Positions 5,871-57,265 are shown, numbered from the stretch's first letter. The stretch: DNA of 64,000 nucleotides from an uncultured Actinomycetes bacterium (GCA_963806335.1 CAWDXO010000009.1:165269-229268), one strand, 5' to 3'. Made by a program: numbers and translations. The notes: generated by a model not told the origin, from the letters alone.

Positions 5871-5884
5871 GGGACCTTGGTCCC
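5871..5884. promoter_or_regulatory. DevR/DosR-type operator, GGGACCTTGGTCCC (perfect)
   Basis: Sits in the divergent intergenic region between the permease (-) and a USP (+, start 5999). A weaker copy, GGGACCTTAGGCAC, lies at 5792..5805. Confidence 0.75.
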
Positions 5885-24333: not shown

Positions 24334-24361
24334 GGGACTTTGGCCTCGGGACTTTGGTCCC
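24334..24361. promoter_or_regulatory. Two abutting DevR/DosR-type operators, GGGACTTTGGCCTC + GGGACTTTGGTCCC (second is perfect)
   Basis: A direct 14-bp duplication about 110 nt upstream of the cytochrome b start. Confidence 0.7.
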
Positions 24362-28088: not shown

Positions 28089-28097
28089 CGCAGCCGT

Positions 28098-28886: not shown

Positions 28887-29743
28887 CACAGCTCCTTCAG
28901 CGTCACAAGGGGAGCGGCCCCGGCGTAGCTGACCACCGGGCCGTCTCGGCAGAGCAGGAGCGGGCCCAGCTGGCAGTGGCCGCAGAGCGCGGTACCGCAC
29001 CGCATGTTCCGCTCCAGGGAGACCTGGATGTCCGCGGCCGCGACCCCGCAGTTCACCAGCGCTTCGGCGGACCGCCGCATCATGATCTCCGGCCCGCAGA
29101 TGAATGCCGCTGTCCACGCGGGATCAACGACCGCGTCCTCGATGAGCCCGGTGATCAAGCCGACCCGACCGTCCCAGTCGGGGGTGCCGCGGTCCACCGT
29201 GACCCGCACGTCGGCGCCGCGCTGGCGCCAGGTCCTGAGCTCGCGGGTGAAGATCAGGTCGTCCGGTGACCGCGCGCCGACCAGCAGGACCACCCGGTCG
29301 TACCTGGCCCGCGCGGCGAGGGCCGCCAGCACCACCGGACGCAGCGGGGCGAGCCCGATACCACCCGCCACGATCAGCGCGTCCCGGCCGTCGGCGCGGC
29401 GCAGCCGCCAGTCGGTGCCGAACGGCCCGCGCACCCCGATCATGTCGCCGGGCGCCGCGGCGCACAGGGCGCGGGTCGTCGCCCCGACCGCCCGGATCGT
29501 ATGAACGAGCGGGCCCGCGCCGCCATGGAAGCCGCTGACCGAGACCGGGACCTCGCCCACGCCGAAGGTATACAGCATGGTGAACTGGCCCGGACGCGGC
29601 GGCGGGATCGCGTCGTCCACCGGTCGCAGCATCAGCGTCACCGTGTCGTGGGTCTCGGCGCGCCGCGCCGCCACGACGTAGCGCGCGGGCCGCATCGGCG
29701 CTCCCGGGACCGGGGGGACGGAACGCTCCCACACCATCGTCAT
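28886..29743 (-). CDS. hyhG: Hydrogenase gamma subunit, FNR-like FAD/NAD(P)-binding with C-terminal 2Fe-2S (HyhG type)
   Basis: ATG 29743 forms an ATGA overlap with the hyhB stop. Motifs: [31 protein letters not shown]. Confidence 0.8.
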
Positions 29744-30897
29744 GACCCCTCCCCCGCTGGCCGATCGCGCTCCGCGCGCAGGGCCCGGGTTTCCTCGGTG
29801 AGATCGATGCCCGCCGGGCACCACACGATGCACCGTCCGCAGCCCACGCAGCCGGACGAGCCGAACTGGTCGTGCCAGGTGCCGAGCTTGTGGGTAAGCC
29901 ACTGCCGATACCGGCTCGCTCCCGACACCCGCACGCTGCCGCCATGCAGGTAGGAAAAGTCCAGGTCGAAACAGGAATCCCAGCGCTGCCAGCGCTCGGC
30001 GTGCCCGCCGGTCAGGTCGGTGGTGTCCTCGACCGTGGTGCAGAAACACGTCGGGCAAGCCAGGGTGCAATTGCCGCAGGTCAGACAGCGCGCGGCGACG
30101 TCATCCCAGCGGGCGGCCTGGTGGCTGTCCGTCATCAGGTCCCGCAGGTCGCAGGTGTCCAGCTGGCGGCCCATCCGGTCCACCGCGGCGTCCACCGCCG
30201 ACCGTGCCCGCCGGATGGTGGCGTCGTCCGCCCGCTCGTTCGGCACCTGCGTCAGGACGTCCGCGCCGTCGGCCGAGCCGATGTTGACGAGGAACCGGTG
30301 CCCGTGGTCGTCGAGCAGTTCGGTGAGCGCCAGGTCGAAGACTTCCCCGGCGCTGCCCGGACCGGTGCCCATTGAGGCGCAGAAGCAGGTCTCCCCCGGC
30401 TCGGTGCAGTTCACCGCGATGATGAACACGCCGGAGCGGCGGGCCGCGTACCCTGAGCCTGCCCGGCCGAGGACCTGATCCTGGATCGCGATCGCCCGCA
30501 GGTCACACGGGCGGACACCGAGGAACGCGTACCGCGGGGGTTCGTCCTGGCCGGGATCGTCGGACACCTCGAATCCATTGCCGGTACGCGTCGCCGACCA
30601 GAGCCGCTCCCGCGGCGGGTGCAGGAACCGCTTCCAGCTTTGCGGTCCCGCCACGTGACCGAAGGCGGCCGTATCATCGCGGCGGCGCAGCCGGTATCCG
30701 CCCGGCTCGAGCCGGACTCCCCAGCCGAAGGGCAGTTCCCCGGCCGACGACAGCTCGGCGAGCACGATGGCACCGTCCCGGACCGTCGGCCCGACGACGC
30801 GGTAACCCTGAGCGACCAGTGCCCGATACAGATCACCGAGACCCTCGACATCGATAAGCCGGGGGACGTCAATCGCAAGTCCGGTAGCCATTACCAC
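29740..30897 (-). CDS. hyhB: Hydrogenase beta subunit, 4Fe-4S dicluster protein (HyhB / AsrA-like)
   Basis: Motifs: CLTCGNCTLACPTCFC and CVGCGRCIVWCPAGID. It is the first gene of the hyhBGS unit. Confidence 0.8.
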   Translation of the reverse strand: MVMATGLAIDVPRLIDVEGLGDLYRALVAQGYRVVGPTVRDGAIVLAELSSAGELPFGWGVRLEPGGYRLRRRDDTAAFGHVAGPQSWKRFLHPPRERLWSATRTGNGFEVSDDPGQDEPPRYAFLGVRPCDLRAIAIQDQVLGRAGSGYAARRSGVFIIAVNCTEPGETCFCASMGTGPGSAGEVFDLALTELLDDHGHRFLVNIGSADGADVLTQVPNERADDATIRRARSAVDAAVDRMGRQLDTCDLRDLMTDSHQAARWDDVAARCLTCGNCTLACPTCFCTTVEDTTDLTGGHAERWQRWDSCFDLDFSYLHGGSVRVSGASRYRQWLTHKLGTWHDQFGSSGCVGCGRCIVWCPAGIDLTEETRALRAERDRPAGEGS

Positions 30898-41784: not shown

Positions 41785-41798
41785 GTGACGGAGGTCCC
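41785..41798. promoter_or_regulatory. DevR/DosR-type operator, GTGACGGAGGTCCC (1 mismatch)
   Basis: About 115 nt upstream of the membrane protein gene (41913). It lies in the divergent region shared with the cNMP-binding gene. Confidence 0.5.
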
Positions 41799-41912
41799 GG
41801 ACTTATGGTGACGTCTGGCCGTGTCGGCGGCGGGGCGGCGGCGCAAGACTGCGAGTTAATAACTGAAGAAAAGTAGCGGGCAACGGCCCGCATGTTAAAG
41901 GAAGGCATTACG

Positions 41913-42509
41913 ATGCGCCGCAATTCTCGTCTCACCGCCATTGTCGGCTTCGCCGCCGCAGCGATCCTGCTGGTAGCAGGCGGACTGCTGCTGTGGGGGT
42001 CGACCTACGTGCACAACACCGTGCAGAGCCAGCTCGCCTCACAGCAGATCACCTTCCCGCCGCAGGCCGCGTTCGCCCACCCCACGGCCGGCGGCGAGAT
42101 CACCCCCAGCATGATCCCGCTGGTCTCCCAGTACGCCGGGCAGCAGCTGCTGACCGGGCAGCAGGCCGAGGCTTACGCCGACCACTTCATCGCCGTGCAC
42201 ATCGCCGAGATCGGCGGCGGCAAGACCTACTCCCAGCTGTCGGCCGCATCGCTGGCCCAGCCGAAGAACACCGTGCTGGCCGGCCAGGTCGCCACCGTGT
42301 TCAAGGGCGAGACGCTGCGCAGCATGCTGCTGAACGCCTACGGCTGGTGGAAGGTCTCCCAGATCACCTACATCATCTCCCTGACCTGCTTCGCCCTCGG
42401 CGGCCTCACCGCGATCGGCACCGGCCTCGCGCTGGTCCTCGGACGCAAGAACCAGACCCCGGCCGAGCCCCTCCGGCAGACCGGCAAGACCCCCGTCACG
42501 GTCGCATGA
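41913..42509 (+). CDS. Two-TM membrane protein, hypothetical
   Basis: ATG 41913 follows AAGGAAGG. It has an N-terminal TM span (AIVGFAAAAILLVAGGLLLW) and a C-terminal TM span (ISLTCFALGGLTAIGTGLALV). Confidence 0.6.
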   Translation: MRRNSRLTAIVGFAAAAILLVAGGLLLWGSTYVHNTVQSQLASQQITFPPQAAFAHPTAGGEITPSMIPLVSQYAGQQLLTGQQAEAYADHFIAVHIAEIGGGKTYSQLSAASLAQPKNTVLAGQVATVFKGETLRSMLLNAYGWWKVSQITYIISLTCFALGGLTAIGTGLALVLGRKNQTPAEPLRQTGKTPVTVA

Positions 42510-42625
42510 CCCCACCGGCAGCCGAACCCGGACAACAGCACATAACCACAGCACGACCGGAGGACCTCCGGCCAGCGCCCACCGCGCCGGCTGGAGGTCC
42601 TTTCCGTTACGAAAGCCGAGGGGGC

Positions 42626-42745: not shown

Positions 42746-42759
42746 GGGCCGAAAGTCCC
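42746..42759. promoter_or_regulatory. DevR/DosR-type operator, GGGCCGAAAGTCCC (1 mismatch)
   Basis: 30-40 nt upstream of the first possible starts (GTG 42788, ATG 42797) of the GltD-like gene. Confidence 0.5.
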
Positions 42760-42787
42760 TGATGCTGGGCAGCGACCTGGGCGTAGC

Positions 42788-44437
42788 GTGGCCGATATGG
42801 CCTTGCCACCAGCCCGACCAGACGTCACGTCGTTGCCAGATCTGCTGCACGGCCGGTCCCGCGCCGGTCCCGTCCGGCAGGAGCGACCCCGCTACGTCGA
42901 CCTGCTGCCGCCGTGCAATGCCGGCTGCCCGGCCGGGGAGAATATCCAGGCGTGGCTGGCGCACGCCGAGACAGGTAACCACGAGCGGGCGTGGCGGCAG
43001 CTGACCGCGGACAACCCGATGCCGGCCATCCACGGCCGGGTCTGCTACCACCCGTGCGAGAGCGTCTGCAACCGGGCCAGCCTGGACAGCGCTGTCTCTA
43101 TTCACTCGGTCGAGCGGTTCCTCGGCGATCTCGCGCTCGAGCGGGGGTGGCCGTTCGACCCGCCCCCGGTCCGTACCGGCCGGCGGGTGCTGGTCATCGG
43201 CGCCGGGCCGAGCGGGCTTTCCGCCGCCTACCACCTGGCCCGGCTCGGCCACGAGGTCGAGATCAGGGATGCGGGCGAGCAAACCGGCGGGATGATGCGC
43301 TACGGCATCCCGTCCTACCGGATGCCACGCGACGTCCTGGACGGCGAGGTTGACCGGATCGCCGCGATGGGCGTGCGGATCACGCTCGGCCACCGGGTGG
43401 AGGACCTGGACGCGGAGCGGCGCGAGGGCGGCTTCGACGCGGCCTTCGTGGCGGTGGGCGCGCACCTGTCCAAGCGGGTCGACATCCCGGCCAAGGACGC
43501 GGGACCGATCGTCGACGCGGTGTCGTTCCTGCGCAGCGTCGCCTCGGGTGAGCGGCCGGTGATCGGGCGGCGCGTCGCCGTCTACGGCGGCGGCAACACC
43601 GCCATGGACGCCGCCCGGGTGGCCCGCCGCCTGGGCGCGAACGACGCGCTCATCGTCTACCGCCGCACCCGGGCGCAGATGCCCGCCCATGAAGAAGAGG
43701 CGGAAGAGGCCGAGCGGGAGGGAGTGCGGATCAACTGGCTGCGCACTATCACCGCGTTCGACGGCCCTGAGCTGACGATCGAGGCGATGGAGCTTGACGA
43801 GCACGGATTCCCGCAGCCGACCGGACGGTTCGAGACGCTGGCCGCGGACACGGTGATCCTCGCCCTCGGCCAGGAGAGCGACACCGCGTTCCTGCGCCAG
43901 GTGCCCGGAGTGGAATTCAGCCGGGACGGCACCGTACAGGTGTCGACGTCCATGATGACCGGATGCGCCGGCGTGTTCGCCGGAGGCGACATGGTGCCGT
44001 CCGAGCGCACCGTGACGGTCGGCGTAGGGCACGGCAAGAAGGCGGCCAAGAACATCGACGCCTGGCTACGCGGAACCGCGCCGGCGAATACGGCCAAGCA
44101 CGAGCAGGTCTCGTTCCGCGACCTGAACTTGTGGTATTTCGGTGACGCGGCCCGCAGGCAGCAGCCGGAGGCCGTCCCGGAGGAGCGGATCGCGGATTTC
44201 GGCGAGGTGCTCGGCGGCTTGTCCGAGGTCGAGGCGACGTACGAGGCACGCCGCTGCCTGTCGTGCGGCAACTGCTGCGAGTGCGACGGCTGCCTGGGCG
44301 CGTGCCCCGAGGACGCGGTGATCAAGCTGGGGCCCGGCCATCGCTACGAGTTCAACTATGGCAAGTGCACCGGCTGCGGCGCGTGTTACGAGCAGTGCCC
44401 GGTGCACTCGATCGAGATGATCCCGGAGGACGAATGA
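42788..44437 (+). CDS. GltD-family NAD(P)H-dependent FAD oxidoreductase with N-terminal Fe-S motif and a C-terminal 2x[4Fe-4S] ferredoxin domain
   Basis: Motifs: CNAGCPAGENIQ...VCYHPCESVCNR; VLVIGAGPSGLSAAYHL; VAVYGGGNTAMDAAR; and C-terminal CLSCGNCCECDGCLGACP and CTGCGACYEQCP. Confidence 0.8.
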   Translation: MADMALPPARPDVTSLPDLLHGRSRAGPVRQERPRYVDLLPPCNAGCPAGENIQAWLAHAETGNHERAWRQLTADNPMPAIHGRVCYHPCESVCNRASLDSAVSIHSVERFLGDLALERGWPFDPPPVRTGRRVLVIGAGPSGLSAAYHLARLGHEVEIRDAGEQTGGMMRYGIPSYRMPRDVLDGEVDRIAAMGVRITLGHRVEDLDAERREGGFDAAFVAVGAHLSKRVDIPAKDAGPIVDAVSFLRSVASGERPVIGRRVAVYGGGNTAMDAARVARRLGANDALIVYRRTRAQMPAHEEEAEEAEREGVRINWLRTITAFDGPELTIEAMELDEHGFPQPTGRFETLAADTVILALGQESDTAFLRQVPGVEFSRDGTVQVSTSMMTGCAGVFAGGDMVPSERTVTVGVGHGKKAAKNIDAWLRGTAPANTAKHEQVSFRDLNLWYFGDAARRQQPEAVPEERIADFGEVLGGLSEVEATYEARRCLSCGNCCECDGCLGACPEDAVIKLGPGHRYEFNYGKCTGCGACYEQCPVHSIEMIPEDE

Positions 44438-47400
44438 CACGCGCCACGGTCGACGGTAACGAGGCCGCGGCGTCGGTCGCCTACCGGCTCAACGAGGTTT
44501 GCTGCATCTACCCGATCACGCCGTCGTCGCCGATGGCCGAGCTCGCGGACGAGTGGTCAAGCAAGGGACGGCCGAACCTGTGGGGCGGCGTGCCGTCCGT
44601 GGTCGAGATGCAGCACGAGGGCGGGGCCGCGGGCGCGTTGCACGGTGCGCTGCAGAGCGGGGCCCTGGCCACCACCTTCACGGCGTCGCAGGGCCTGCTG
44701 CTGATGATCCCCAACATGTACAAGATCGCCGGGGAGCTGACTCCGGCCGTGATCCACGTGGCGGCCCGGTCGCTGGCCGCGCAGGGGCTGTCCATCTTCG
44801 GTGACCACTCGGACGTGATGGGGGTGCGGCAGACCGGTTTCGCGCTGCTCGCTTCCGCGTCGGTGCAGGAGGCCCACGACCTCGCGCTGGTGGCACAGGC
44901 CGCCACGCTGGCGACCCGGGTGCCGTTCGTGCACTTCTTTGACGGGTTCCGCACCTCGCACGAGCTGAACACGATCGAGATGCTGGCCGACGACGACCTG
45001 CGCGCGCTGGTGCCCGAGGCGCTGATTCGCGCGCACCGCGGCCGGGGGCTGTCACCGGAGCGGCCGTTCATCCGGGGCACCGCGCAGAACCCGGACGTCT
45101 ACTTCCAGGCACGCGAAACGGTGAACCCGTTCTACGACGCCGTGCCGGGCGCGGTGCAAGAAGCGATGGACGGCCTCGCCGCCCGTACCGGCCGCCAGTA
45201 TCACGTCGTCGACTACGCCGGTCACCCCGAAGCCGACCGGGTGATCGTCGTGATGGGCTCGGCGGCTGAGACGATCGGCGAGACCGTGGCCTACCTGTGC
45301 GGCCAGGGCGAGCGGGTGGGCATGCTGCAGGTCCGCCTGTACCGGCCGTTCCCGGCTCGGGCCCTGCTCGACGCGCTGCCCGCGAGCGCCGGACGGATCG
45401 CCGTGCTCGACCGGACCAAGGAGCCAGGTTCGAATGGCGAGCCGCTGTTCCTCGACGCGGTCACCACGCTGGCCGAGGCGCACACCGGCGGTGAGCGCGC
45501 GGTGCTGCCGCTGGTGACGGGCGGCCGCTACGGCCTGTCGTCGAAGGAACTCACCCCGGGCATGGTGGCCGGTATTTTCGCGGAACTGGCCCGCGAGCAC
45601 CCGCGGCCCCGGTTCACGATCGGCATCAACGACGACGTGTCCGGCCTGAGCCTGCCTTATGACCGGTCGCTGGACATCGAACCGCCCGGCACGATCCGCG
45701 CGGTCTTCTTCGGCCTCGGCTCGGACGGCACGGTCGGCGCGAACAAGAACACGATCAAGATCCTCGGCGCCGAGGAGAACCTGAACGCGCAAGGCTACTT
45801 CGTCTATGACTCGAAGAAGTCGGGCTCGCAAACGGTGTCGCACCTGCGGTTCGGGCCGCAGCCGATCCGCGCGCCTTACCTGGTGCAGCAGGCCAGCTTC
45901 GTCGGCTGCCATCACTTCGGCCTGCTGGACCGGGTCGACGTGCTCGGCCTGGCGGCCCCGGGAGCGACGCTGCTGCTCGACTGCAAGTTGCCAGCGGATG
46001 AGGTCTGGGATGCGCTGCCCCGCCCGGTCCAGGAGAAGATTCTCGCCAAACGGATCGTGGTTTACGCGATCGATGCCGGGCACATCGCTCGCGAGGCCGG
46101 CCTGGCCGGCCGGACCAACACCGTGCTGCAGACCTGCTTCTTCGCGATCTCGGGCGTACTGCCCCGGGAAGAAGCGATCGACAAGATCAAGAAGTCGATC
46201 ACCAAGACCTACGGCCGCCGCGGCGCCGAGGTGGTCGAGAAGAACCTGTCCGCGGTCGATCACACCGTGGCGGCGCTGCACCAGATCGAGGTGCCCGGCC
46301 GGGTGACGTCCGCGCGGGAACTGCCCGCGATGGTGCCGGCCAGCGCGCCGGAATTCGTCCGCACCGTCACCGCGGAGATGATGGCCGGCCGCGGCGACGA
46401 GCTGCCGGTCAGCATGCTGCCGGTGGACGGCACCTACCCGAGCGGCACCACGGCGTATGAGAAGCGCAACATCTCCGAGCTGGTCGCGGAATGGGATCAG
46501 GACCTGTGCATCCAGTGCGGCAACTGCAGCTTCGTCTGCCCGCACAGCGTGATCAGGGCCACCTACTACGACGAGTCGCTGCTGAAGGGGGCGCCATCGG
46601 AGTTCAAGTCGGCGCCGCTGGACGCCCGCGGGCTCCCGGACACCCGCTTCACGCTGCAGGTCTACGTGGAGGACTGCACCGGATGCGAGCTGTGCGTCCA
46701 GGCCTGCCCGGTCGGGGCGCCTGACAACCCCGAGCGTAAGGCGATCAACCTCGCGGCCCGGGCGCCGCTGGTGGCCGCCGAACGGGACAACGTCGCGTTC
46801 TTCGAGACGCTGCCGGTGGCCGACCGGTCCCGGGTGGACTTCGGCACGGTGCGCGGCACGCAGTTCCTGCAGCCGCTGTTCGAGTTCTCCGGCGCCTGCG
46901 CGGGCTGCGGCGAGACGCCGTACGTCAAGCTCCTTTCGCAGCTGTTCGGCGACCGGCTGATGGTCGCCAACGCCACCGGCTGCTCCTCGATCTACGGCGG
47001 GAACCTGCCCACCACGCCGTGGACGACCAACGCCGACGGGCGCGGGCCGGCCTGGTCGAACTCCCTGTTCGAGGACAACGCCGAGTTCGGCCTCGGGTTC
47101 CGGCTGGCCGCCGACCGGCACACCGAGCTAGCCCGAAGCCGCCTGGACGAGCTCCGCGAGGCGGTCGGCGCCGACCTGGCCGACGAGATCCTCGGCGCGC
47201 CCCAGCTCACCGAGTCGGAACTGGCCGCCCAGTTCGACCGGGTCGCCGAGCTGAAGCGGCGGCTCGAGGCCCTGGACCAGGACTACGGGCATGTCGCCGA
47301 TCTGCGCAGCGTGGTCGATCACCTGGTCCGGCGCAGTGTGTGGATCGTCGGCGGGGACGGCTGGGCCTACGACATCGGCTCCTCGGGCCTGGACCACGTG

Positions 47401-48012
47401 CTGGCCACCGGGCGCAACGTGAACGTGCTGGTGCTCGACACCGAGGTCTACTCCAACACCGGCGGGCAGTCATCGAAGTCGACACCGCTCGGCGCCGTCG
47501 CCAAGTTCGCCTCGGCAGGCAAGACCGTGCCGAAAAAGGACATCGCGCTGCAGGCCATCGCCTACGGCAACGTCTACGTCGCCCGGGTGGCCATGGGCGC
47601 GGACCCGCAGCAGACCCTGCGTGCCTTCCGCGAGGCGGAAGCCTACGACGGGCCGTCGCTGGTCATCGCCTACAGCCACTGCATCGCGCACGGCATCGAG
47701 ATCCGCACCGGACTCGACCAGCAATACCGCGCCGTGGCCAGCGGGCACTGGCCGCTGATCAGGTACGACCCGGTGATCAGGACGGCCGGGGGTAACCCGT
47801 TCCTGCTCGACTCGCCGCGGCCGCGCATCAGCCTGGCCAGCTACACCCAGCGCGAGCTGCGGTACCGCTCGCTCAGCAATACCAACCCGGCCGAGGCCGA
47901 GCGGCTGGGAGCCCTGGCCCAGGAAGCGGTCGACCAGCGCTGGAGCACCTACGAGGAGATGGCTACCCGCGGAGCGCAACAGTTCCCGGCCGACGCGCGG
48001 AGGGACGACTGA
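44434..48012 (+). CDS. nifJ: Pyruvate:ferredoxin (flavodoxin) oxidoreductase, single-chain NifJ type
   Basis: ATG 44434 forms an ATGA overlap with the upstream stop. The product is about 1192 aa. Motifs: CCIYPITPSSPMAE, CIQCGNCSFVCPH, CTGCELCVQACP, and the TPP motif GGDGWAYDIGSSGLDH. Confidence 0.95.
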   Translation: MTRATVDGNEAAASVAYRLNEVCCIYPITPSSPMAELADEWSSKGRPNLWGGVPSVVEMQHEGGAAGALHGALQSGALATTFTASQGLLLMIPNMYKIAGELTPAVIHVAARSLAAQGLSIFGDHSDVMGVRQTGFALLASASVQEAHDLALVAQAATLATRVPFVHFFDGFRTSHELNTIEMLADDDLRALVPEALIRAHRGRGLSPERPFIRGTAQNPDVYFQARETVNPFYDAVPGAVQEAMDGLAARTGRQYHVVDYAGHPEADRVIVVMGSAAETIGETVAYLCGQGERVGMLQVRLYRPFPARALLDALPASAGRIAVLDRTKEPGSNGEPLFLDAVTTLAEAHTGGERAVLPLVTGGRYGLSSKELTPGMVAGIFAELAREHPRPRFTIGINDDVSGLSLPYDRSLDIEPPGTIRAVFFGLGSDGTVGANKNTIKILGAEENLNAQGYFVYDSKKSGSQTVSHLRFGPQPIRAPYLVQQASFVGCHHFGLLDRVDVLGLAAPGATLLLDCKLPADEVWDALPRPVQEKILAKRIVVYAIDAGHIAREAGLAGRTNTVLQTCFFAISGVLPREEAIDKIKKSITKTYGRRGAEVVEKNLSAVDHTVAALHQIEVPGRVTSARELPAMVPASAPEFVRTVTAEMMAGRGDELPVSMLPVDGTYPSGTTAYEKRNISELVAEWDQDLCIQCGNCSFVCPHSVIRATYYDESLLKGAPSEFKSAPLDARGLPDTRFTLQVYVEDCTGCELCVQACPVGAPDNPERKAINLAARAPLVAAERDNVAFFETLPVADRSRVDFGTVRGTQFLQPLFEFSGACAGCGETPYVKLLSQLFGDRLMVANATGCSSIYGGNLPTTPWTTNADGRGPAWSNSLFEDNAEFGLGFRLAADRHTELARSRLDELREAVGADLADEILGAPQLTESELAAQFDRVAELKRRLEALDQDYGHVADLRSVVDHLVRRSVWIVGGDGWAYDIGSSGLDHVLATGRNVNVLVLDTEVYSNTGGQSSKSTPLGAVAKFASAGKTVPKKDIALQAIAYGNVYVARVAMGADPQQTLRAFREAEAYDGPSLVIAYSHCIAHGIEIRTGLDQQYRAVASGHWPLIRYDPVIRTAGGNPFLLDSPRPRISLASYTQRELRYRSLSNTNPAEAERLGALAQEAVDQRWSTYEEMATRGAQQFPADARRDD

Positions 48013-49046
48013 TGGACCTTTCGACCCGCTACATGGGCCTGGCGCTGCGAAACCCGCTCGTCGCCTCCGCGTCCCCGCTCTCGAATACCGTCGACGGGGT
48101 CCGGCGGCTCGCCGACGGCGGTGTCGGCGCGGTGGTGCTCTACTCCCTGTTCGAGGAGCAACTGCGCCGGGAGGCCGAACAGAACGCGCGGCTGGCCGAG
48201 ATGGGCACGGAGGTTTTCGCCGAGGCCCTGTCCTACTTCCCGGCCGAGGCCGAGGCTGAGGCGACGGAGGATGGCAGCGCGGATGAACCTAGCCCGCGCC
48301 GCTACCTGAGCCTGCTCGAGCGCGCCGCGGCGGCGGTCGAGATACCGGTCATCGGCAGCATCAACGGGGTGACACCCGGCGGCTGGACCAGCTACGCGCG
48401 CGCGATGCAAGACGCCGGCGCCGCGGCGATCGAGCTGAACATCTACTACATCCCAGGCGACCCGCACATTACCGGCCGCGAGGTCGAGCAGCGGCACATC
48501 GACATCCTGTCCCAGGTCAAGGACGCGGTGACCGTGCCGGTGGCGGTCAAGCTGAGCCCGCACTTCAGCTCGGCCGGCGAGATGGCCCTGCGGCTTGACG
48601 AGGCGGGCGCGGACGGCCTAGTGCTGTTCAACCGGTTCCTGCAGCCCGACATCAACCTCGAGACCCTCGCGGTGCAGCCCGACGTGTACCTCTCCAGCCC
48701 GGCCGAGGCCCGGCTGCCGCGCACCTGGATCTCCATCCTGCGCCAGCATCTGCGTGCCTCCCTCGCCGCGACGACCGGCGTCGAGGGACCGGCCGACGTG
48801 ATCAAGTACCTGCTCGCGGGCGCCGACGTCGTGATGACGGCATCCGCGCTGATCCGGCACGGCCCCGAGCACGCCGCCGTCCTGCTTGACGGCCTGTCCG
48901 ACTGGATGGCCCGCAAGGGTTACCCGTCGGTCGCCGGAGTGCGCGGCATGCTCGCCCTGCCTGCAGGTACCGACGAGGCTGCTTACGAGCGCGCAGGCTA
49001 CGTCCGCGCGATGCAGGCCGCCAACAGCTCCCGCGGGCCGTGGTGA
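48012..49046 (+). CDS. Dihydroorotate-dehydrogenase-like FMN protein (class 1 fold, no Fe-S domain)
   Basis: The ATG overlaps the nifJ stop (TGATG). Motifs: LRNPLVASASPLS...VIGSINGV...AIELNIYY...VAVKLSP...GLVLFNR. Confidence 0.75.
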   Translation: MDLSTRYMGLALRNPLVASASPLSNTVDGVRRLADGGVGAVVLYSLFEEQLRREAEQNARLAEMGTEVFAEALSYFPAEAEAEATEDGSADEPSPRRYLSLLERAAAAVEIPVIGSINGVTPGGWTSYARAMQDAGAAAIELNIYYIPGDPHITGREVEQRHIDILSQVKDAVTVPVAVKLSPHFSSAGEMALRLDEAGADGLVLFNRFLQPDINLETLAVQPDVYLSSPAEARLPRTWISILRQHLRASLAATTGVEGPADVIKYLLAGADVVMTASALIRHGPEHAAVLLDGLSDWMARKGYPSVAGVRGMLALPAGTDEAAYERAGYVRAMQAANSSRGPW

Positions 49047-49278
49047 CGATTAAGAAGGGCTGACCTGCGCAACCGGTGACCGAAGTCCTAGCAGCCGGGG
49101 ACCTTCAGTAATGGCGAGAGCGCCGCCGCGGGCGGGACACTGGCACTATCAGGTCAGGCAAGGCCCGGGCCGGGCCGGGCCGGAAGGCTCCCGTCGAGCG
49201 GCGCCGACGGGTAAGCGAGTGCGGGCGGCCGGCGCCGGGCGTCGGCCACCCCACCCGCCGATGGCTAGGCGGCAGTAT

Positions 49279-49701
49279 CTAGTGAGCAGGGCGGATGCGG
49301 CGGCCAGTGATGCGGGACGGGACGATCCGCACGAACAATTCCCGGTCTCCGGCGGGCCACGGCTCGACGCCCGCTTGCTCGGCAGACTTGCGCTCGGCCT
49401 CGGACACGTGATGGGCCGGTCCCTGGATGAGCACACTCCAGCCCTCGCGCCCGGCTACGTCGATCTCGTCGATCTCGAACGCCACCTGGTAGTCCCCACC
49501 GACGATCCCGGTCTGCAGGTCCTCGTCCAGCGCACTGTGCCGGACCGTGCGGAACACGATCGCTCCGTCATGCCACTGGTAGTTCACCGGCAGCACGGCC
49601 GGGCCGAACCGGCTTTGGTAGGCGATCCGTCCGACTCCGCCCGGCGATATCAGCCGCAGGCTCTCCGATTCATCGAGTTCCTCGATCGTACGGTCAGACA
49701 T
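49279..49701 (-). CDS. PPOX-fold family protein, paralogue 4
   Basis: Motifs: LDESESLRLISPGGVGRIAY, PAVLPVNYQWHDGAIVFR, GWSVLIQGPAHHV, FVRIVPSRITGRRI. Confidence 0.8.
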   Translation of the reverse strand: MSDRTIEELDESESLRLISPGGVGRIAYQSRFGPAVLPVNYQWHDGAIVFRTVRHSALDEDLQTGIVGGDYQVAFEIDEIDVAGREGWSVLIQGPAHHVSEAERKSAEQAGVEPWPAGDRELFVRIVPSRITGRRIRPAH

Positions 49702-49789
49702 GCCTGATCCTCCCGGGTGCGAGGCCTGGTCGCGTAGTTACGACCTTAGCGTCATGGACGAGGCCGATGACCTTCAACCCGGCTAGACA

Positions 49790-49803
49790 TGGACTTTCGG
49801 CCC
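49790..49803. promoter_or_regulatory. Candidate DevR/DosR-type operator, TGGACTTTCGGCCC (2 mismatches)
   Basis: Sits in the divergent region between PPOX paralogue 4 (-) and adh (+). It resembles the box at 18004. Confidence 0.4.
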
Positions 49804-49867
49804 TGTCCCCCGACCCCCGCCTCCGGCCAAGCTGGAAATCGGAAGCCAGCGACATCTGGAGGCAGTC

Positions 49868-50908
49868 ATGCGAGCCCTCGTTTATGACGGTCCAGGACGC
49901 AAGGCCTGGGAAGAGGTTGCCGATCCGGAGATCACCGATGACGGCGACATCATCGTGCGGGTCGACGCGACCACGATCTGCGGCACCGACCTGCACATCC
50001 TCAAGGGCGACGTGCCCGCGGTGCATAAGGGGCGGATCCTCGGCCACGAAGCCGTCGGGACCATCGATGAGGTCGGCGACGGCGTGCGCAGGATGTGTCC
50101 CGGTGACCGGGTGCTTGTCTCGTGCATCAGCGCCTGCGGGACGTGCCGGTTCTGCCGCGAGGGACGCTACGGGCAGTGCCTGGAGGGCGGCGGCTGGATC
50201 CTCGGCCACAAGATCGACGGCACCCAGGCGGAGTACGTCCGCGTGCCGTTCGCCGACACCTCCACTTTCCGGGTCCCCGACGGCGTGTCCGACGAGGAGA
50301 TCCTCATGCTGGCCGACATCCTGCCGACCGGCTACGAGGTCGGCGTCCTGGCCGGAGGCGTCCGCCCCGGCGATGTCGTCGCCGTCGTCGGAGCCGGTCC
50401 GGTCGGCTTGTCCGCGATCGCCGGCGCGCAGCTGTTCAGCCCCAGCCACATCATCGCGATCGACCTCTCCGCCACAAGGCTGGAGGCGGCCAAGCAGTTC
50501 GGCGCCGACGTCACGGTCAACAATTCGCGTGAGGACCCGCTCAGCGTCATCAGGGCACTGACCGGGCGGCTAGGCGCGGACGTCTCCATCGAAGCCGTCG
50601 GCACGCCCGCCACGTTCGAGCTGGCCGTCAAGCTGGCCCGGCCGGGCGGCCGGATCGCGAACATCGGCGTGCACGGCGAGGCCGCCCTGCTGCACCTGGA
50701 AGAAGAGTGGATCAAGGACATCACGATCACTACGGGCCTGGTCGACACGTCCTCCACCCCGACCCTGATGCGCCTGCTCACCAACGGCCAGATCGACGCC
50801 AGGCGGTTCATCACCCACCGCTTCGGCCTAGACGAGTTCGAAGAAGCTTACGACGTGTTCGCCCGGGCCGCCGACACCGGCGCGCTCAAGGTCGTCCTCA
50901 CGCGCTAA
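49868..50908 (+). CDS. adh: Zinc-dependent alcohol dehydrogenase (MDR family)
   Basis: Motifs: ICGTDLHILKG, GHEAVGTIDEVG, the structural-zinc motif CGTCRFCREGRYGQC, and VVGAGPVGL. Confidence 0.9.
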   Translation: MRALVYDGPGRKAWEEVADPEITDDGDIIVRVDATTICGTDLHILKGDVPAVHKGRILGHEAVGTIDEVGDGVRRMCPGDRVLVSCISACGTCRFCREGRYGQCLEGGGWILGHKIDGTQAEYVRVPFADTSTFRVPDGVSDEEILMLADILPTGYEVGVLAGGVRPGDVVAVVGAGPVGLSAIAGAQLFSPSHIIAIDLSATRLEAAKQFGADVTVNNSREDPLSVIRALTGRLGADVSIEAVGTPATFELAVKLARPGGRIANIGVHGEAALLHLEEEWIKDITITTGLVDTSSTPTLMRLLTNGQIDARRFITHRFGLDEFEEAYDVFARAADTGALKVVLTR

Positions 50909-50931
50909 GGCACAGAAAAGAAGTGACAACG

Positions 50932-51624
50932 ATGAAGTCCACCGTCAAAGACGTGATGACCACTCGCGTGGTCTGGGTCAAGAAGAGCGCGTCGTTCAGG
51001 GAGATGGCCCATGCCCTCCGGGAGAACCGGATCAGCGCGTTTCCGGTCCTGGACGAGGAGGGGAAGGTGATCGGCGTCGTCTCCGAGTCCGACCTGCTGG
51101 CCAAGGAAGCCCGCAACGGCGAGCACGACGGCCTGACGGGAATGGTCAGCGACCTGCTGCACCACAACGAACTGGTGAAGGCGCGCGGGATAACGGCGGG
51201 CGAGCTGATGACAAGCCCCCCGGTGACCGTCGGCCCCGAGGACACGGTCGAGCATGCCGCCCGGCTGCTGTACAAGCGCAAGGTCAAGAGGCTCCCCGTC
51301 GTCGACGTGGCCGGTCATCTGGCCGGCATCGTCAGCCGGGCCGACGTGCTAGCGGTCTTCGACCGCCCGGACGAGGACATCCGGAGGGAAGTCAACGCCG
51401 AGATCCTGTTTGACCAGGTTCTTGGCGACCCGAACCGGCTGAGCGTGGCGGTAAAGGACGGCGTGGTGACCCTGGCCGGCACGCCGGAGACCGAAGGGAT
51501 CGGCCGCGAGATCGTGGACCAGACCCGGCACGTCCAGGGTGTGGTGGCCGTACGCGACCGCCTCAGCTATCCGCCGCCGAAGGATTCCGGCTATGACCCG
51601 TGCGTCATGTTCCCGTCCGACTGA
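50932..51624 (+). CDS. CBS-pair + BON domain protein
   Basis: ATG 50932. Motifs: VKDVMTTRVVWV...ISAFPVLDEEGKVIGVVSESDLL; VKRLPVVDVAGHLAGIVSRADVL; and a BON tail (VAVKDGVVTLAG...VQGVVAVRDRL). Confidence 0.85.
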   Translation: MKSTVKDVMTTRVVWVKKSASFREMAHALRENRISAFPVLDEEGKVIGVVSESDLLAKEARNGEHDGLTGMVSDLLHHNELVKARGITAGELMTSPPVTVGPEDTVEHAARLLYKRKVKRLPVVDVAGHLAGIVSRADVLAVFDRPDEDIRREVNAEILFDQVLGDPNRLSVAVKDGVVTLAGTPETEGIGREIVDQTRHVQGVVAVRDRLSYPPPKDSGYDPCVMFPSD

Positions 51625-51655
51625 CGCCCGCACCAGCCTGAGAAGGGACAGCACG

Positions 51656-52333
51656 ATGAACACCACCGTCAAGGACATCATGACCGCCGAGGTCGTGGCG
51701 GTGAAGCGCGGCGCGTCCTTCAAGGAGATGGCCGCCCTGCTGCGCCGGTTCCGGGTGAGCGCCTTGCCCGTCGTCGATGACGACGAGAAGGTGATCGGGG
51801 TCGTCTCCGAGGCCGACCTGCTGGCCCGGGAGGTGCTGACCGGCAGCCACGACAGGATGCCCGGGATGATCGCCGGCCTGCTGCACCACCGGGAGCAGGA
51901 GAAGGCCGCCGGCCTCACTGCGGGCGAGCTGATGACGCACCCGGCGGTGACGGTCCGGCCCGAGGATTCGGTCGAGCAGGCCGCCCGGCTGCTGTACACC
52001 CTCGGGGTGAAACGGCTCCCCGTGATCAATGCGGGCGGCCGCCTCGTCGGCATCGTCAGCCGGACCGACGTACTGGCGGTCTTCGACCGCCCGGACGAGG
52101 AGATCCGCAGGGAGATCACCGATGAGGTGATCTTGCGCGGCTCCCTCGAGGACCCGCGTCAGTTCGCGGTGACCGTCCAGGCCGGCGTCGTGACCCTGGC
52201 GGGAAGCCCGGAAACCGCCGCACTTGGCCACGACATCGTGCGCAGGATCCGGCATGTCCAGGGCGTGGTGGCCGTCCGGGACCACCTCAGTTACCCGGAC
52301 GTTTACCCCATCGTCGCCGGCCCGGTCTTCTGA
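51656..52333 (+). CDS. CBS-pair + BON domain protein (tandem paralogue)
   Basis: ATG 51656. Motifs: VKDIMTAEVVAV...VSALPVVDDDEKVIGVVSEADLL; VKRLPVINAGGRLVGIVSRTDVL; VTVQAGVVTLAG...VQGVVAVRDHL. Confidence 0.85.
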   Translation: MNTTVKDIMTAEVVAVKRGASFKEMAALLRRFRVSALPVVDDDEKVIGVVSEADLLAREVLTGSHDRMPGMIAGLLHHREQEKAAGLTAGELMTHPAVTVRPEDSVEQAARLLYTLGVKRLPVINAGGRLVGIVSRTDVLAVFDRPDEEIRREITDEVILRGSLEDPRQFAVTVQAGVVTLAGSPETAALGHDIVRRIRHVQGVVAVRDHLSYPDVYPIVAGPVF

Positions 52334-52337
52334 CCCG

Positions 52338-54842
52338 ATGGGTAAACAGGCAGACTGGCAGACTGACATGGAAAAGCAGGCCGACCAGGTGTACGCGCTG
52401 CTCGCTGACGGGACCACGGTCGAGATCCGCCCGGCCGGCCCGGATGATTTCGACGCGGTCAAGGCCATGCACGAAGCGATGTCTCCTGACAACGCGTACA
52501 TGCGCTTCTTCAACCTCAGCCGGCTGGCCGCGGCGGCGGAGGCGCGCCGGACCTGCCAGGAGCCCGGCCCCGATCACGGCGCGCTGCTCGCGCTGTGCGG
52601 CGGCGAGGTGGTCGGTGTGGCCAGCTTCTACGTTACCGATAACCCGGCACCGGCCAGCGGCGAGCGTGCGGCGGAGATCGCGTTCGCGGTGGCCGACCAC
52701 ATGCACCACCGGGGGATCGCCACCCTGCTGCTCGAGCACCTGGTCTCGCTGGCCAGGAGCCGCCAGATAACCACGTTCACCGCCGAGACCCTTTCCGAGA
52801 ACAAGCCGATGCAGGACGTGTTCGCGGGCGCGGGGCTGCCCGTCAAGCGTCACTACGCGGACGGGGTCTTCGAGATGACCTTTCCGCTGCCCACCCCGGA
52901 CGCCGGCACCGCACTGGACAGCTACCTGAGTGCCGTGGCCGAACGTGAACGCCGCGCGGAGGCCGCCAGCCTGCGGCACGTATTCGCGCCCGAGTCCGTC
53001 GTGGTGATCGGCGCCAGTCGGCGGCGGGGCAGCGTGGGCCGGGCGATCGTAGACAACATCCGCGCCGGCGGGTACGCCGGCCGGCTCTATACAGTGAACC
53101 CGCACGCCCGGCAGATCGGCGGCGAGCACTGCCTGTCCTCGGTGCTGGACCTGCCCGAGCCCGCCGACCTGGCCGTGATAGCGGTGCCCGCCGCCGCGGT
53201 CCTCGGCGCGGCCGAGCACTGCGGCCAGCGCGGCGTCCGGTCCCTGATCGTGATCACCGCCGGGCTGGGGGTCGCCGGCTGCGCCGATCTGCTCGCGGTG
53301 TGCCGCCGGCACGGCATGCGGCTGGTCGGCCCGGACTGCTTCGGCGTGGCCGTGCCCGGCATCGGCCTCAACGCCACGTTCGCCGAGAACCCGCCCGCAC
53401 CCGGCGTGGCCGGCCTGGTCATGCAGTCCGGTGGCCTGGGGTTCGCGATGGTAGACCAGCTCTCCCGACTCGGCATCGGGATCTCCTCGTTCGCGTCGGT
53501 GGGCGACAAGCTCGACGTGTCAAGCAACGACATGCTGCTGTGGTGGGAGCATGACGGCATCACCAAGGTCGCCGTGCTCTACATCGAGTCGTTCGGCAAT
53601 CCGCGCAAGTTCGGCCGGAACGCTCGCCGGGTGAGCGCGAGCATGCCCGTACTCACCGTGCTGGCCGGCCAGCAGGAGACTCCCCTAATCAGCCGGGAGG
53701 CCCCCCTACTCACCCGGGAAGCAGTGTTCGAGCAGGCCGGCGTGGTCACCGTGCGCGGCTTCGGCGACCTGATCGAGGCCACCGCGCTGCTCGCGACCCA
53801 GCCGGTTCCGGCCGGCTCCACCATCGCCATCGTGTCCAATATCGGCAGCGCCGGCGAGCTGGCCGCCGCGGCTTGCACCGAGCGCGGGCTGAACGTGTAC
53901 GACCCGCACGGCCTGACCAGGCGGCGGCTGCGGGCGCTCGGGTCCGGCCCCGGCGCCGGAACCATCAGTGACACCGGAGCGGTCGACACCACGGCCACGG
54001 TTTCCGGCGAGCGTTTCCGCGCCTGCCTGGAACTGCTGGCGGCGGACGACGACGTGCACGCGATCATCGCGCTCGTCCTGCCGACGGGCGCGACCGGCGA
54101 CCTGGTGACCGCCATCCAGGAAGCGAATGTCAGCGTCCCGCTGGCCGCCGTCGTGCTCAATCAGAGCGAATCCGTCCGGCTGCTGGCCCGGCCGGAGGGG
54201 CACCGGGCGGGCCGGATACCGGCTTACGGTTACCCGGAGGCGGCGGTCGCCGCGGTGGCCCGGGCCGTCGGTTACGGCGCCTGGCGCGCTGAGCCGCGCG
54301 GCCGGGTGCCCGACTTCCCCGATATCAGGGCCGCGGACGCTCGCACGCTGGCCCGCGAGTTCCTCCGCCACGCGCCGCAGGGCGGCTGGCTGCCGCCCGG
54401 TAAGACGGCCGAGCTGCTGTCCTGCTACGGAATAGCGGTGGGTGCCGCCGCACCGGACGGCACCGAGGTGATCGTCACGGTAGCCGCGGACCAGACGTTC
54501 GGCCCGCTGGTGGTGTTCGGGCTCGGCGGCGCGGGGACTGAGGTGTTCGCCGACCGCGCGGCCCGGCTCACGCCGGTGACCGACACCGACGCGGACAAGC
54601 TGATCCGGTCCATCCGCTCCGCGCCGCTGCTGCTCGGCCGGGGCGGCCGTGCCGCCGCGGACCTGGACGAGCTGCGCGACCTGCTGATGCGGGTCTCGCG
54701 GCTCGCCGACGACCTAGCCGAAGTCGCCGACCTCGAGCTCAGCCCGGTCATCGCCGGGCCGACCGGGGTCGTGGCCAGGCGAGCGCGGATCCGGCTGGCC
54801 CCGTATGAGCCCAAGGACCCGTTCCTGCGACGATTGCGCTGA
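52338..54842 (+). CDS. GNAT acetyltransferase fused to an NDP-forming acyl-CoA-synthetase-like module (Pat-type protein acetyltransferase, GNAT-first order)
   Basis: The N-terminal GNAT part carries [13 protein letters not shown]. It is followed by a CoA-binding part ([17 protein letters not shown]), a ligase-CoA part and an ATP-grasp-like part. The start is ATG 52338 or ATG 52368. Confidence 0.75.
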
Positions 54843-57265
54843 TGGTAACGGGGGCAAGCACCGCTGCCCGTTCGGACAAAAAAGGGGTCTATGTGTCTGT
54901 GACGGAGACTGTGCCCGGGCCGTTGACGGCCAGTGAGCTTGACGCGCTCGACGGGTGGTGGCGCGCGGCGAATTACCTGTCGGTGGGGCAGATCTACCTA
55001 ATGGATAATCCGCTGCTGGCCGAGCCACTGCGGCCCGAGCACGTCAAGCCGCGGCTGCTGGGGCACTGGGGGACGACGCCGGGGCTGAACCTGATTTACG
55101 CGCACCTGAACCGGGTGATCAGGAACTCCGACCTGGACGTGATCTACGTGGCGGGTCCGGGGCACGGCGGTCCCGGGATGGTGGCGAATACGTACCTGGA
55201 GGGGACGTATACCGAGCGCTACTCACGGATTACCCAGGACACGGCGGGGATGGCCCGGCTATTCCGGCAGTTCTCCTTTCCCGGCGGGATCCCCTCGCAC
55301 GTGGCGCCGGAGACGCCCGGGTCGATCCATGAGGGCGGTGAGCTTGGCTACTCGCTGGCGCACGCGTACGGGGCGGCGTTCGATAACCCGGACCTGATCG
55401 TGGCGTGCGTGATCGGCGACGGGGAGGCCGAGACCGGGCCGCTGGCGGGCAGCTGGCATGCGAACAAGTTCCTGGACCCGGCCAGCGACGGCGCCGTGCT
55501 GCCAATCCTGCACCTGAACGGGTACAAGATCGCGAACCCGACGGTGCTGGCCCGGATCCCGGCCGGGGAGCTCGATTCGCTCCTAACCGGCTACGGGTAC
55601 CGGGTGTACACGGTGGAGGGTAATGACCCGGCGCGGGTGCACCAGCAGCTCGCCGCCACCATGGACACGGTCATCGCCGAGATTCATGCCATCCAGCGCC
55701 GGGCCCGCGTGGACGGGGACGTGACCCGACCGGCGTGGCCGGTCATCGTGCTGCGGACGCCGAAGGGGTGGACCGGTCCCAAGGTGGTGGACGGGCTGCC
55801 GGTGGAGGGGACATGGCGGGCGCACCAGGTCCCGATCGACGCGGCCCGGACGAACCCGGAGCACCTGACCCAGCTGGAGTCCTGGCTGCGGTCCTACCGC
55901 GCCGAGGAACTCTTCGATGCCTCCGGGGCGCTGGTCCCCGAGCTGGCCAGGCTAGCGCCACACGGGGAGCGGCGGATGAGCGCCAACCCGCACGCGAACG
56001 GCGGGGTGCTGCTGCGGGATCTGGACCTCCCGGATTTCCGTGACTACGCGGTGGCGGTGCCGGCCCCGGGGGCCGGGATGTCCGAGGCGACCCGGGTACT
56101 GGGCCAGTGGCTGCGTGATGTGATCACCCGTAACCCTTCGTCGTTCCGGCTGTTCGGCCCGGATGAGACGGCTTCCAATCGGCTGGACGCGGCGTTCGAG
56201 GTGACGAACCGGGCATTCGAGGGCGAGATCATCGATGGCGACAACCACCTCGCCCCCGACGGGCGGGTGGTGGAGGTGTTGTCGGAGCATCTGTGCCAGG
56301 GCTGGCTGGAGGGATACACGCTGACCGGGCGGCACGGGCTGTTCAACTGCTACGAGGCGTTCATCCACATCATCGACTCCATGTTCAACCAGCACGCCAA
56401 GTGGCTGAAGGTCACCCGCGGTATCGGCTGGCGGGCGCCGGTGGCCTCGCTGAACTACCTGCTGTCCTCGCTGGTCTGGCGGCAAGACCACAACGGGTTC
56501 AGCCACCAGGACCCTGGCTTCATTGACCACGTGGTGAACAAGAAAGCCGAGGTCATCCGCGTCTACCTGCCGCCTGACACCAACACCCTGCTCTCGGTCG
56601 GCGATCACTGCCTGCGCTCGCGGCAGTACGTCAACGTCATCGTGGCCGGAAAGCAGCCGCAGTGGAACTGGCTCGGCATGGACGAGGCGATCATCCACTG
56701 CTCCCGCGGGGCCGGGATCTGGGAATGGGCCAGCAACGACTCTCCCGGCGAGCCGGACGTGGTGATGGCCTGCTGCGGGGAGACTCCCACGCTGGAGACC
56801 ATGGCCGCGGTGTCGCTGCTGCGTGAGCACCTGCCGGAGCTGAAGGTGCGGGTGGTCAATGTGGTTGACCTGATGCGGCTTGAGCCCGAGACCGAGCACC
56901 CGCACGGCATGTCGGACGCGGAGTTCGACGCCCTGTTCACCACCGGCCGGCCGGTGATCTTCGCGTACCACGGTTACCCCTGGCTGATCCACCGGCTGAC
57001 CTACCGCCGGCACGGTCACGACAACCTGCACGTCCGCGGCTACAAGGAAGAGGGCACCACCACCACCCCGTTCGACATGGTCATGATGAACGATCTGGAC
57101 CGCTTTCACCTGGTCATGGACGTCATCGACCGTGTCCCGGGGCTCGCGTCGGCGGCCGGGCACGTTAGGCAGCTGATGACGGATAAGCGCCTGACGTGCC
57201 GCGCGTATACCCGCGAGCACGGCGAGGACGCTCCCGAGATCACCAACTGGAAGTGGGCGTACTGA
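54842..57265 (+). CDS. xfp: Xylulose-5-phosphate/fructose-6-phosphate phosphoketolase
   Basis: Motifs: [40 protein letters not shown]. The product is about 800 aa. Its ATG overlaps the upstream stop (TGATG); a later GTG start is possible. Confidence 0.9.

Follow-up and report, generated by a model that had tools for sequence, protein, structure and literature searches.

Pyruvate:ferredoxin/flavodoxin oxidoreductase (PFOR) is generally taken to depend strictly on ferredoxin or flavodoxin. A possible exception is suggested by a 64,000-nucleotide stretch of DNA from an uncultured Actinomycetes bacterium (GCA_963806335.1, CAWDXO010000009.1:165269-229268; hereafter the window, with positions counted from its first letter), in which a PFOR gene lies between the genes for a GltD-like, or NfnB-like, flavoprotein and a dihydroorotate dehydrogenase-like (DHOD-like) flavin mononucleotide (FMN) protein. 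A reading made from the sequence alone had described this PFOR as sandwiched between the two halves of a module resembling dihydropyrimidine dehydrogenase (DPD), which could wire it directly to NAD(P)+. The trio is a genuine, conserved kind of operon, already reported but with no known biochemistry. On the best-supported explanation it would constitute a ferredoxin-independent pyruvate:NADP+ oxidoreductase, in which electrons would pass from PFOR through a built-in ferredoxin domain to flavin adenine dinucleotide (FAD) and NADP+, with the DHOD-like protein as an FMN port; the chances of this are judged slightly below even.

A PFOR/DHOD-like core and its GltD-like addition

An alignment of 10 DHOD-like sequences was scanned against one genome per GTDB species and returned at least 597 relatives. 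The best 80 loci, a set biased to close relatives, were kept, and the three window proteins were mapped onto them by tblastn coordinates. In 78 of the 80 loci the next gene 5' of the DHOD-like gene is that for PFOR, in the same orientation; one of the others is a real exception (L039) and one has too little flank (L044). Of 60 testable loci, 29 have a GltD-like gene directly 5' of PFOR, each time with a C-terminal ferredoxin domain. Thus, PFOR and the DHOD-like protein are the core, a widespread one that includes the nifJ operon of Synechocystis, and the GltD-like protein is an addition. The order of the trio is kept in these 29 loci, which belong to Actinomycetota, some Alpha- and Gammaproteobacteria, one Nitrospira and one Gemmatimonadales genome, and its recurrence across several phyla is therefore not a matter of chance. 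All Actinomycetota loci with enough flank carry the GltD-like gene, and cultured carriers of the trio include Nocardia shimofusensis, Mycobacterium attenuatum, Austwickia, Nostocoides and Tessaracoccus. Loci without it come from Acidobacteriota, Cyanobacteria, Bacteroidota/Ignavibacteriota, Verrucomicrobiota, Planctomycetota and Chloroflexia. Identity to the window PFOR is 64-82% where a GltD-like neighbour is present and 55-61% where it is not, and a neighbour-joining tree of PFOR separates the two groups fully. The occurrence of the GltD-like gene follows a single PFOR subclade, to which it is a clade-specific addition.

Because PFOR intervenes in 29 of 29 trio loci, the GltD-like and DHOD-like genes are never adjacent. 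The stop of PFOR and the start of the DHOD-like gene share bases in 13 of 21 trio loci; the proteobacterial trio genes are 100-180 nt apart with no overlap. Among the other neighbours, none recurs in more than eight of the 80 loci. Genes for NAD(P)-linked Hox hydrogenases follow the PFOR/DHOD-like pair in four loci, one of them an Isosphaeraceae metagenome-assembled genome (MAG) in which nifJ, the DHOD-like gene, hoxE, hoxF, hoxU, hoxY and hoxH form a single co-directional cluster (L072, 536-10265); in the other three (L053, L070, L078), HoxE/F-like genes lie near the pair. No clade-specific indels that might mark docking sites were found in PFOR or the DHOD-like protein, and the few positions that discriminate the clades (12 for PFOR, 2 for the DHOD-like protein) are too weak for interpretation. 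A second 2-oxoacid:ferredoxin oxidoreductase, of two subunits (alpha and beta), is encoded a few kb from the pair in eight GltD-less loci (L042, L050, L051, L058, L061, L076, L078, L080).

The same trio has been described in Propionibacterium, where a glutamate-synthase-small-chain-like gene, nifJ1 and a DHOD-like gene are co-transcribed and co-regulated, and where knockout of that PFOR crippled growth (McCubbin et al. 2020; PMC7650540). The gene families and their order are those of the window, and because a complex of the same trio was proposed in that study, namely an Nfn-like bifurcating complex using quinol, the wiring idea of the sequence-only reading is not new. In Synechocystis, the nifJ transcription unit consists of sll0741 (nifJ), sll0743 and sll0744, the last annotated as "DHOD (fumarate)" (PMC11368403). 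It shows the same PFOR/DHOD-like pairing as the window but lacks a GltD-like gene. Unlike both, the window trio sits in an apparent DosR-type hypoxia island, in an uncultured actinomycete related to Streptosporangiaceae, whose MAGs supply the closest homologues. Literature searches found sll0744 in gene lists only, no biochemical characterisation of the trio or of the Synechocystis nifJ-unit partner, and no report characterising such a pyruvate:NAD(P)+ oxidoreductase from bacteria.

The operon and its three products

The trio occupies three co-directional open reading frames (ORFs; window 42788-49046), each with a third-position GC content (GC3) of about 0.90. The stop of gene 1 overlaps the start of PFOR in ATGA (44434-44437), and the stop of PFOR overlaps the start of gene 3 in TGATG (48010-48014). 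Both overlaps, already pointed out in the sequence-only reading, were read directly, and they indicate that the three genes are translationally coupled. Homologues of the gene 1 product are 545-546 residues long and begin at the ATG at 42797, which is therefore a more likely start than the GTG at 42788; residue numbers for this protein nevertheless count from the GTG. The region upstream (42510-42620) has a minimum free energy of -48.2 kcal/mol (z = -5.4; an equally good fold in 0 of 200 shuffles), and the hairpin within it resembles a terminator for the gene at 41892-42509. A palindromic DosR/DevR-type box, GGGCCGAAAGTCCC, follows 37 nt before the gene 1 ATG, within the 30-40 nt that the sequence-only reading had given. 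Since the hairpin would end the upstream gene and the box precedes the ATG, the trio is probably a separate transcription unit. The upstream ORF itself encodes 205 residues with a strong coding signal (GC3 0.92) and no Pfam or NCBIfam match, and has its own DosR-type box, with one mismatch, 5' of it at 41785.

Coordinates of the trio, its upstream signals and the hydrogenase genes in the window
Feature	Position	Strand	Basis
GC-rich hairpin followed by UUUCC, terminator-like	42558-42606	+	Folding energy against shuffles
DosR/DevR-type palindromic box	42746-42759		GGGACN4GTCCC with one mismatch
Gene 1, GltD-like/NfnB-like FAD and NADPH flavoprotein	42788 (GTG) or 42797 (ATG)-44437	+	Pfam, NCBIfam, PDB matches
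Gene 1, Fer4_20 part	42908-43147 (residues 41-120)	+	Pfam
Gene 1, FAD/NADPH core (Pyr_redox_2)	43184-44035 (residues 133-416)	+	Pfam
Gene 1, post-core segment resembling the NfnB N-terminus, supplies C490/C493	44162-44308 (residues 459-507)	+	Alignment
Gene 1, CxxCxxCxxxCP motifs (C-terminal 2x[4Fe-4S])	44273-44308 and 44366-44401	+	Motif
Gene 2, single-chain PFOR, NifJ type, 1192 residues	44434-48012	+	Pfam, NCBIfam, PDB matches
Gene 2, ferredoxin-domain motifs	46507-46542 and 46675-46710	+	Motif
Gene 3, DHOD/DPD-fold protein, PRK07565 family, predicted FMN binder, 344 residues	48012-49046	+	Pfam, NCBIfam, AF2/Foldseek
Cytochrome-b-like 618-residue ORF, hydrogenase large subunit, HycI	Large subunit 26215-27654; HycI 27543-28088	+	Best matches
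Hydrogenase delta, gamma and beta subunits, convergent with the + strand set	28098-30897	-	Best matches

For the GltD-like subunit, NCBIfam PRK12771 gives 777 bits with a cut-off of 516. Among solved structures its nearest relatives are NfnB-like modules, and the three top matches in the PDB are 9bov_A (305 bits), 9n5u_A (293 bits) and 8oh5_C (268 bits); the solved NfnB structures 5jca_L and 4ylf_B follow at 223-246 bits, the upper value being PfNfnI (5jca_L), then GltD at about 180 and DPD at 123. By these scores the subunit is nearer to NfnB-/Stn-type modules, at 245-305 bits, than to DPD. Its Fer4_20 part contains only five cysteines (43, 47, 86, 90 and 94). The CxxC absent there is found as C490 and C493, beyond the flavoprotein core, an arrangement shared with all three top PDB matches, and the segment that carries it (ER..F.EV..EA.RCL.C, residues 459-493) aligns with the N-terminus of NfnB, weakly, at 12.7 bits. 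Across 28 orthologues 15 cysteines are invariant, and the two that remain, which are not ligands, vary. In DPD and Nfn, one of the cluster ligands is not a cysteine. With one such ligand, 15 invariant cysteines would be enough for four [4Fe-4S] clusters, the number predicted here, and these include the extra C-terminal pair that the sequence-only reading had noticed. The motif GGGNTAMD...YRR is likewise invariant and corresponds to the NADPH site of PfNfnI. The subunit accordingly belongs with the GltD/NfnB-type NADPH:Fe-S flavoproteins, as an NfnB-type module that exchanges electrons between NADPH and Fe-S clusters, in line with the sequence-only reading.

Three features part bifurcating NfnB from simple ferredoxin:NADP+ oxidoreductases, namely an upstream nfnA gene (PyrK-like), Arg333 and a long N-terminus before the first cluster cysteine, and experiments on stand-alone NfnB-like proteins of the Cac_0764 type have identified them as ferredoxin:NADP+ oxidoreductases that do not bifurcate (Huang et al. 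2025; PMC12221290). No nfnA lies directly 5' of the GltD-like gene, where the unmatched ORF at 41892-42509 and the terminator-like hairpin are found, and 26 of 28 orthologues have a histidine (His301) where PfNfnI-B has Arg333, a residue next to the FAD. On these two counts the subunit falls short of a bifurcating NfnB. It differs from NfnB in lacking the NfnA partner and in this histidine, and from both NfnB and the Cac_0764 type in having the first CxxC of Fer4_20 after the core and an additional C-terminal 2x[4Fe-4S] domain.

The middle gene is of the NifJ type, as had been read from the sequence alone. Its product scores 1676 bits against TIGR02176 (cut-off 911) and 1301 bits against the Moorella PFOR 6cin, and its alignments to 6cin and to 1b0p span the whole chain. 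The domain set is complete (POR_N, PFOR_II, POR, EKR, 2x Fer4, TPP_enzyme_C), and the cluster-ligand and thiamine-diphosphate motifs can be read in the translation (CIQCGNCSFVCP, CTGCELCVQACP, CAGCGETPY, TGCSS, SHCIAHG and GGDGWAYDIG...NTGGQ), all of which points to a canonical single-chain pyruvate:ferredoxin/flavodoxin oxidoreductase. In the pyruvate:NADP+ oxidoreductase (PNO) of Euglena and Cryptosporidium, which is linked to NADP+, PFOR is fused to a cytochrome-P450-reductase-type reductase (flavodoxin plus FNR). The window PFOR ends at residue 1192 with no additional Pfam domain, and a Euglena-type PNO was rejected: there is no fused reductase of that type, and the reductase here is a separate gene of another family. 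A metagenome contig from ENA (ERZ25039525 contig_86835, L081) is 99.96% identical to window 45013-52046, with 2 mismatches and 1 indel; PFOR is called there as two genes of 522 and 690 residues, probably owing to an assembly indel, since the window PFOR is intact.

The third protein falls by score into NCBIfam PRK07565, "DHOD-like protein" (456 bits, cut-off 303), and has a DHO_dh match in Pfam. Its translation contains no cysteine at all and therefore no Fe-S cluster, which bears out the description of it as an FMN protein without Fe-S. A confident AlphaFold2 (AF2) model (pLDDT 88.6) was compared by Foldseek and matches the FMN domain of pig DPD (E = 3e-16, TM-score 0.65) and the class 1A DHODs (TM-score 0.66-0.68) about equally. 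In profile alignments the protein keeps K180 (VKLSP), N143 (ELN) and N207, the equivalents of DPD Lys709, Asn668 and Asn736, together with the GG region. These residues are consistent with FMN binding, and the protein presumably binds FMN. The loop that bears the catalytic cysteine (SCPN; C671 in pig DPD) reads IYYIPGD (in ELNIYYIPGD), with no catalytic cysteine or serine, and an invariant arginine, Arg208, stands where DPD has Thr737. Against pyrD_sub1_fam the score is 82.8 bits (cut-off 270). Because the catalytic residue is missing, gene 3 was rejected both as a dihydroorotate dehydrogenase (classes 1A, 1B and 2) and as a dihydropyrimidine dehydrogenase.

The notion that two halves of DPD flank PFOR describes the cofactors fairly but finds no support in the relationship of the genes. 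The two flavoproteins of the trio have the same inventory as pig DPD and PreT/PreA of Escherichia coli (FAD, an NADPH site, four [4Fe-4S] clusters and an FMN barrel). Unlike DPD, the DHOD-like protein has no catalytic cysteine and PFOR separates the two genes; unlike PreA, the FMN subunit does not carry the ferredoxin domain, which resides on the GltD-like subunit. A PreT/PreA arrangement was rejected on the placement of the 2x[4Fe-4S] domain and the non-adjacency of the genes. Since the DHOD-like gene occurs with PFOR in the GltD-less loci, it is independent of its supposed other half.

Possible electron routes

In the pyruvate:NADP+ oxidoreductase proposed at the outset, pyruvate and CoA would be oxidised at the thiamine-diphosphate site of PFOR, and the electrons would exit via its three [4Fe-4S] clusters. 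They would enter the ferredoxin-like C-terminal domain of the GltD-like subunit, a substitute for soluble ferredoxin, and travel along the Fe-S chain of that subunit to its FAD, which would reduce NADP+ to NADPH; the net reaction would be reversible in principle. The eight cysteines of this built-in domain are all invariant, and a soluble carrier would therefore be unnecessary. The DHOD-like protein would be the older and more general partner of PFOR, offering it a second electron entry or exit via FMN. The layout of the genes, their domains, the invariance of the ligands, the synteny and the clades are observed; that the proteins form a complex, which way the electrons flow, the preference for NADP+, the binding of FMN and the part played by the DHOD-like protein are inferred. 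In favour of the route are the coupled genes, the conserved order of the trio and the clean split of the PFOR tree, the four predicted clusters and NADPH-type motif of the GltD-like subunit, the non-bifurcating activity of stand-alone NfnB-like proteins, the lack of a soluble ferredoxin gene in the window, the co-transcription in Propionibacterium, and the DosR-type box, group 3b hydrogenase, Pta and ADP-forming acetyl-CoA-synthetase-like gene of the window. The net chemistry proposed for the trio, with a 2-oxoacid oxidoreductase core linked straight to NAD(P)+ by a flavoprotein, is also that of PNO and of PadEFGHI of Azoarcus, a phenylglyoxylate:NAD+ oxidoreductase. The trio would differ from PNO in having its reductase as a separate NfnB-like subunit and in the additional FMN barrel protein.

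Several observations weigh against such an enzyme. The conservation of the trio, on which the sequence-only reading had been made to depend, holds for the 29 syntenic loci, but in 31 of the 60 testable loci the PFOR/DHOD-like pair occurs without the GltD-like gene; with about half of the loci lacking it, the core pair evidently works without the NADPH module. Among distant DHOD-like relatives (36-40% identity), one of six adjoins PFOR and five stand alone, and because such stand-alone relatives exist, the DHOD-like protein may act apart from PFOR and may have its own function unrelated to PFOR wiring. A preference for NADP+ over NAD+ is suggested by the GGGNTAMD...YRR motif alone. The AF2 model of the GltD-like subunit, built from a shallow alignment, is unusable (pLDDT 42), and the only apparent GltD-PFOR fusion proteins found (P0274, P0335) were rejected as frameshift or indel artefacts in which the sequence goes out of frame.

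The genes may instead be merely co-expressed, with the GltD-like protein as an unattached, Cac_0764-type ferredoxin:NADP+ oxidoreductase that would re-oxidise the soluble ferredoxin or flavodoxin which PFOR reduces, and the DHOD-like protein as an independent enzyme. This is on the unlikely side but deserves real weight. Stand-alone NfnB-like proteins have been characterised as exactly such oxidoreductases (PMC12221290), the Arg333 position is not arginine, nfnA is absent, DHOD-like relatives occur alone, and the spacing of the proteobacterial trio genes agrees with separate products. Yet the GltD-like subfamily owns a 2x[4Fe-4S] domain with eight invariant cysteines, its presence tracks one PFOR subclade exactly, and no small, soluble ferredoxin gene was found in the 64 kb window. 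The alternative acceptor named in the sequence-only reading, a flavodoxin-family gene at 9251, does have an N-terminal Flavodoxin_5 match, but a weak one (27.9 bits).

The remaining explanations give the DHOD-like FMN a larger part. In an Nfn-like confurcating or bifurcating complex, which is quite improbable, the NfnB-like FAD would join NADP(H) to PFOR on the low-potential side and to the DHOD-like FMN on the high-potential side, with quinol, fumarate or NADH. Such a complex was put forward for Propionibacterium (PMC7650540), three flavin or thiamine-diphosphate centres and many clusters lie within one operon, and the modules recur in known pairs (GltD-like plus PyrK-like in Nfn, PyrK plus PyrD in DHOD B, GltD-like plus PyrD-like in DPD). 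Of the published NfnB discriminators, however, the upstream nfnA and Arg333 are absent and the N-terminus gives no clear answer; in the 31 loci above PFOR has its DHOD-like partner but no GltD-like one, and no quinone-binding or membrane element was found. A two-flavin reductase of the DPD type, in which electrons would run from NADPH through FAD and four [4Fe-4S] clusters to FMN and a small substrate, with PFOR as an extra low-potential feed, is less probable again. It would account for the DPD-like cofactor count, for the DPD FMN domain as the top structural match of the DHOD-like model and for the retention of N143, N207 and K180, but it sits poorly with a protein that has no equivalent of Cys671 and no other cysteine, with Arg208 in place of Thr737, and with a gene that occurs mostly without the GltD-like gene and is never next to it. 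A broader proposal is improbable, though somewhat less so than these two: PFOR and the DHOD-like FMN protein would form a two-component unit across cyanobacteria, Acidobacteriota, Bacteroidota, Actinomycetota and others, its FMN acting as a ferredoxin-independent port, and with the NfnB-like subunit would become a confurcating or bifurcating pyruvate:NADP+ oxidoreductase. If true, pyruvate synthesis from NADPH would be possible in aerobes without low-potential ferredoxin systems.

Genomic surroundings and wider meaning

The trio carries the palindromic promoter box typical of the DosR/DevR regulon, a putative regulatory site. Matches to GGGACN4GTCCC with at most one mismatch number 23 in the window, mostly intergenic, against 7.9 +/- 2.7 expected, and 23 was reached in 0 of 100 shuffles; further boxes lie, for example, at 5871, 12469, 15155, 15221, 21564, 24348 and 58556. 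A box precedes the orthologous operon in 2 of 28 loci, and that of the window trio is thus lineage-specific. The window also encodes a DevS-like GAF-GAF histidine kinase (1437-3167, minus strand), several universal stress proteins, one HSP20 and a WS/DGAT acyltransferase; no DosR-type response regulator gene was identified in its 64 kb. Carbon metabolism is represented by Pta, GAPDH, PGK and phosphoketolase. With these genes and boxes, the window has the appearance of a DosR-type hypoxia and fermentation island. A GNAT domain fused to an ADP-forming acetyl-CoA-synthetase-like protein is encoded at 52224-54842, and its last base is the first of the phosphoketolase gene (54842-57265), a shared base that suggests translational coupling of the two. 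Four acidobacterial loci (L050, L051, L058, L073) have a comparable fusion, with GNAT at the C-terminus, in the neighbourhood of PFOR.

The group 3b hydrogenase that the sequence-only reading placed upstream is supported by four subunits whose best matches are to NAD(P)-dependent sulfhydrogenase (group 3b), with a HycI protease, 12-16 kb 5' of the trio. Its genes are split across the strands (24473-30897), and a perfect DosR-type box (24348-24361) lies 5' of the plus-strand set. Under the proposed oxidoreductase, NADPH from pyruvate could be vented as H2 by this hydrogenase, and acetyl-CoA would go to ATP-yielding acetate formation. This H2 link through NADPH is plausible, because the hydrogenase operon has that perfect box and because Hox clusters adjoin the PFOR/DHOD-like pair elsewhere.

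The stand-alone distant relatives of the DHOD-like protein (L082, L083/L084 with P0265, L085, L086 with P0204, and L089) have neighbourhoods of their own. In L083 these comprise a protoglobin histidine kinase, a universal stress protein, a NarL-type regulator and a NirB-like nitrite reductase, and in L086 universal stress protein and CBS-domain genes, which hints at a hypoxia- or nitric oxide-related role independent of PFOR.

If the proposed route is true, a bacterial PFOR wired to NADP(H) via an NfnB-like subunit of its own would add to Euglena PNO and PadEFGHI a third, independent link between 2-oxoacid oxidation and pyridine nucleotides, and would help explain redox balance and H2 formation in hypoxic actinomycetes and propionibacteria. 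The more general result is the DHOD-like protein as an uncharacterised partner of PFOR in many phyla, Synechocystis sll0744 included. Its near-universal pairing with PFOR among close relatives is the most useful lead, and one that is testable in model organisms.

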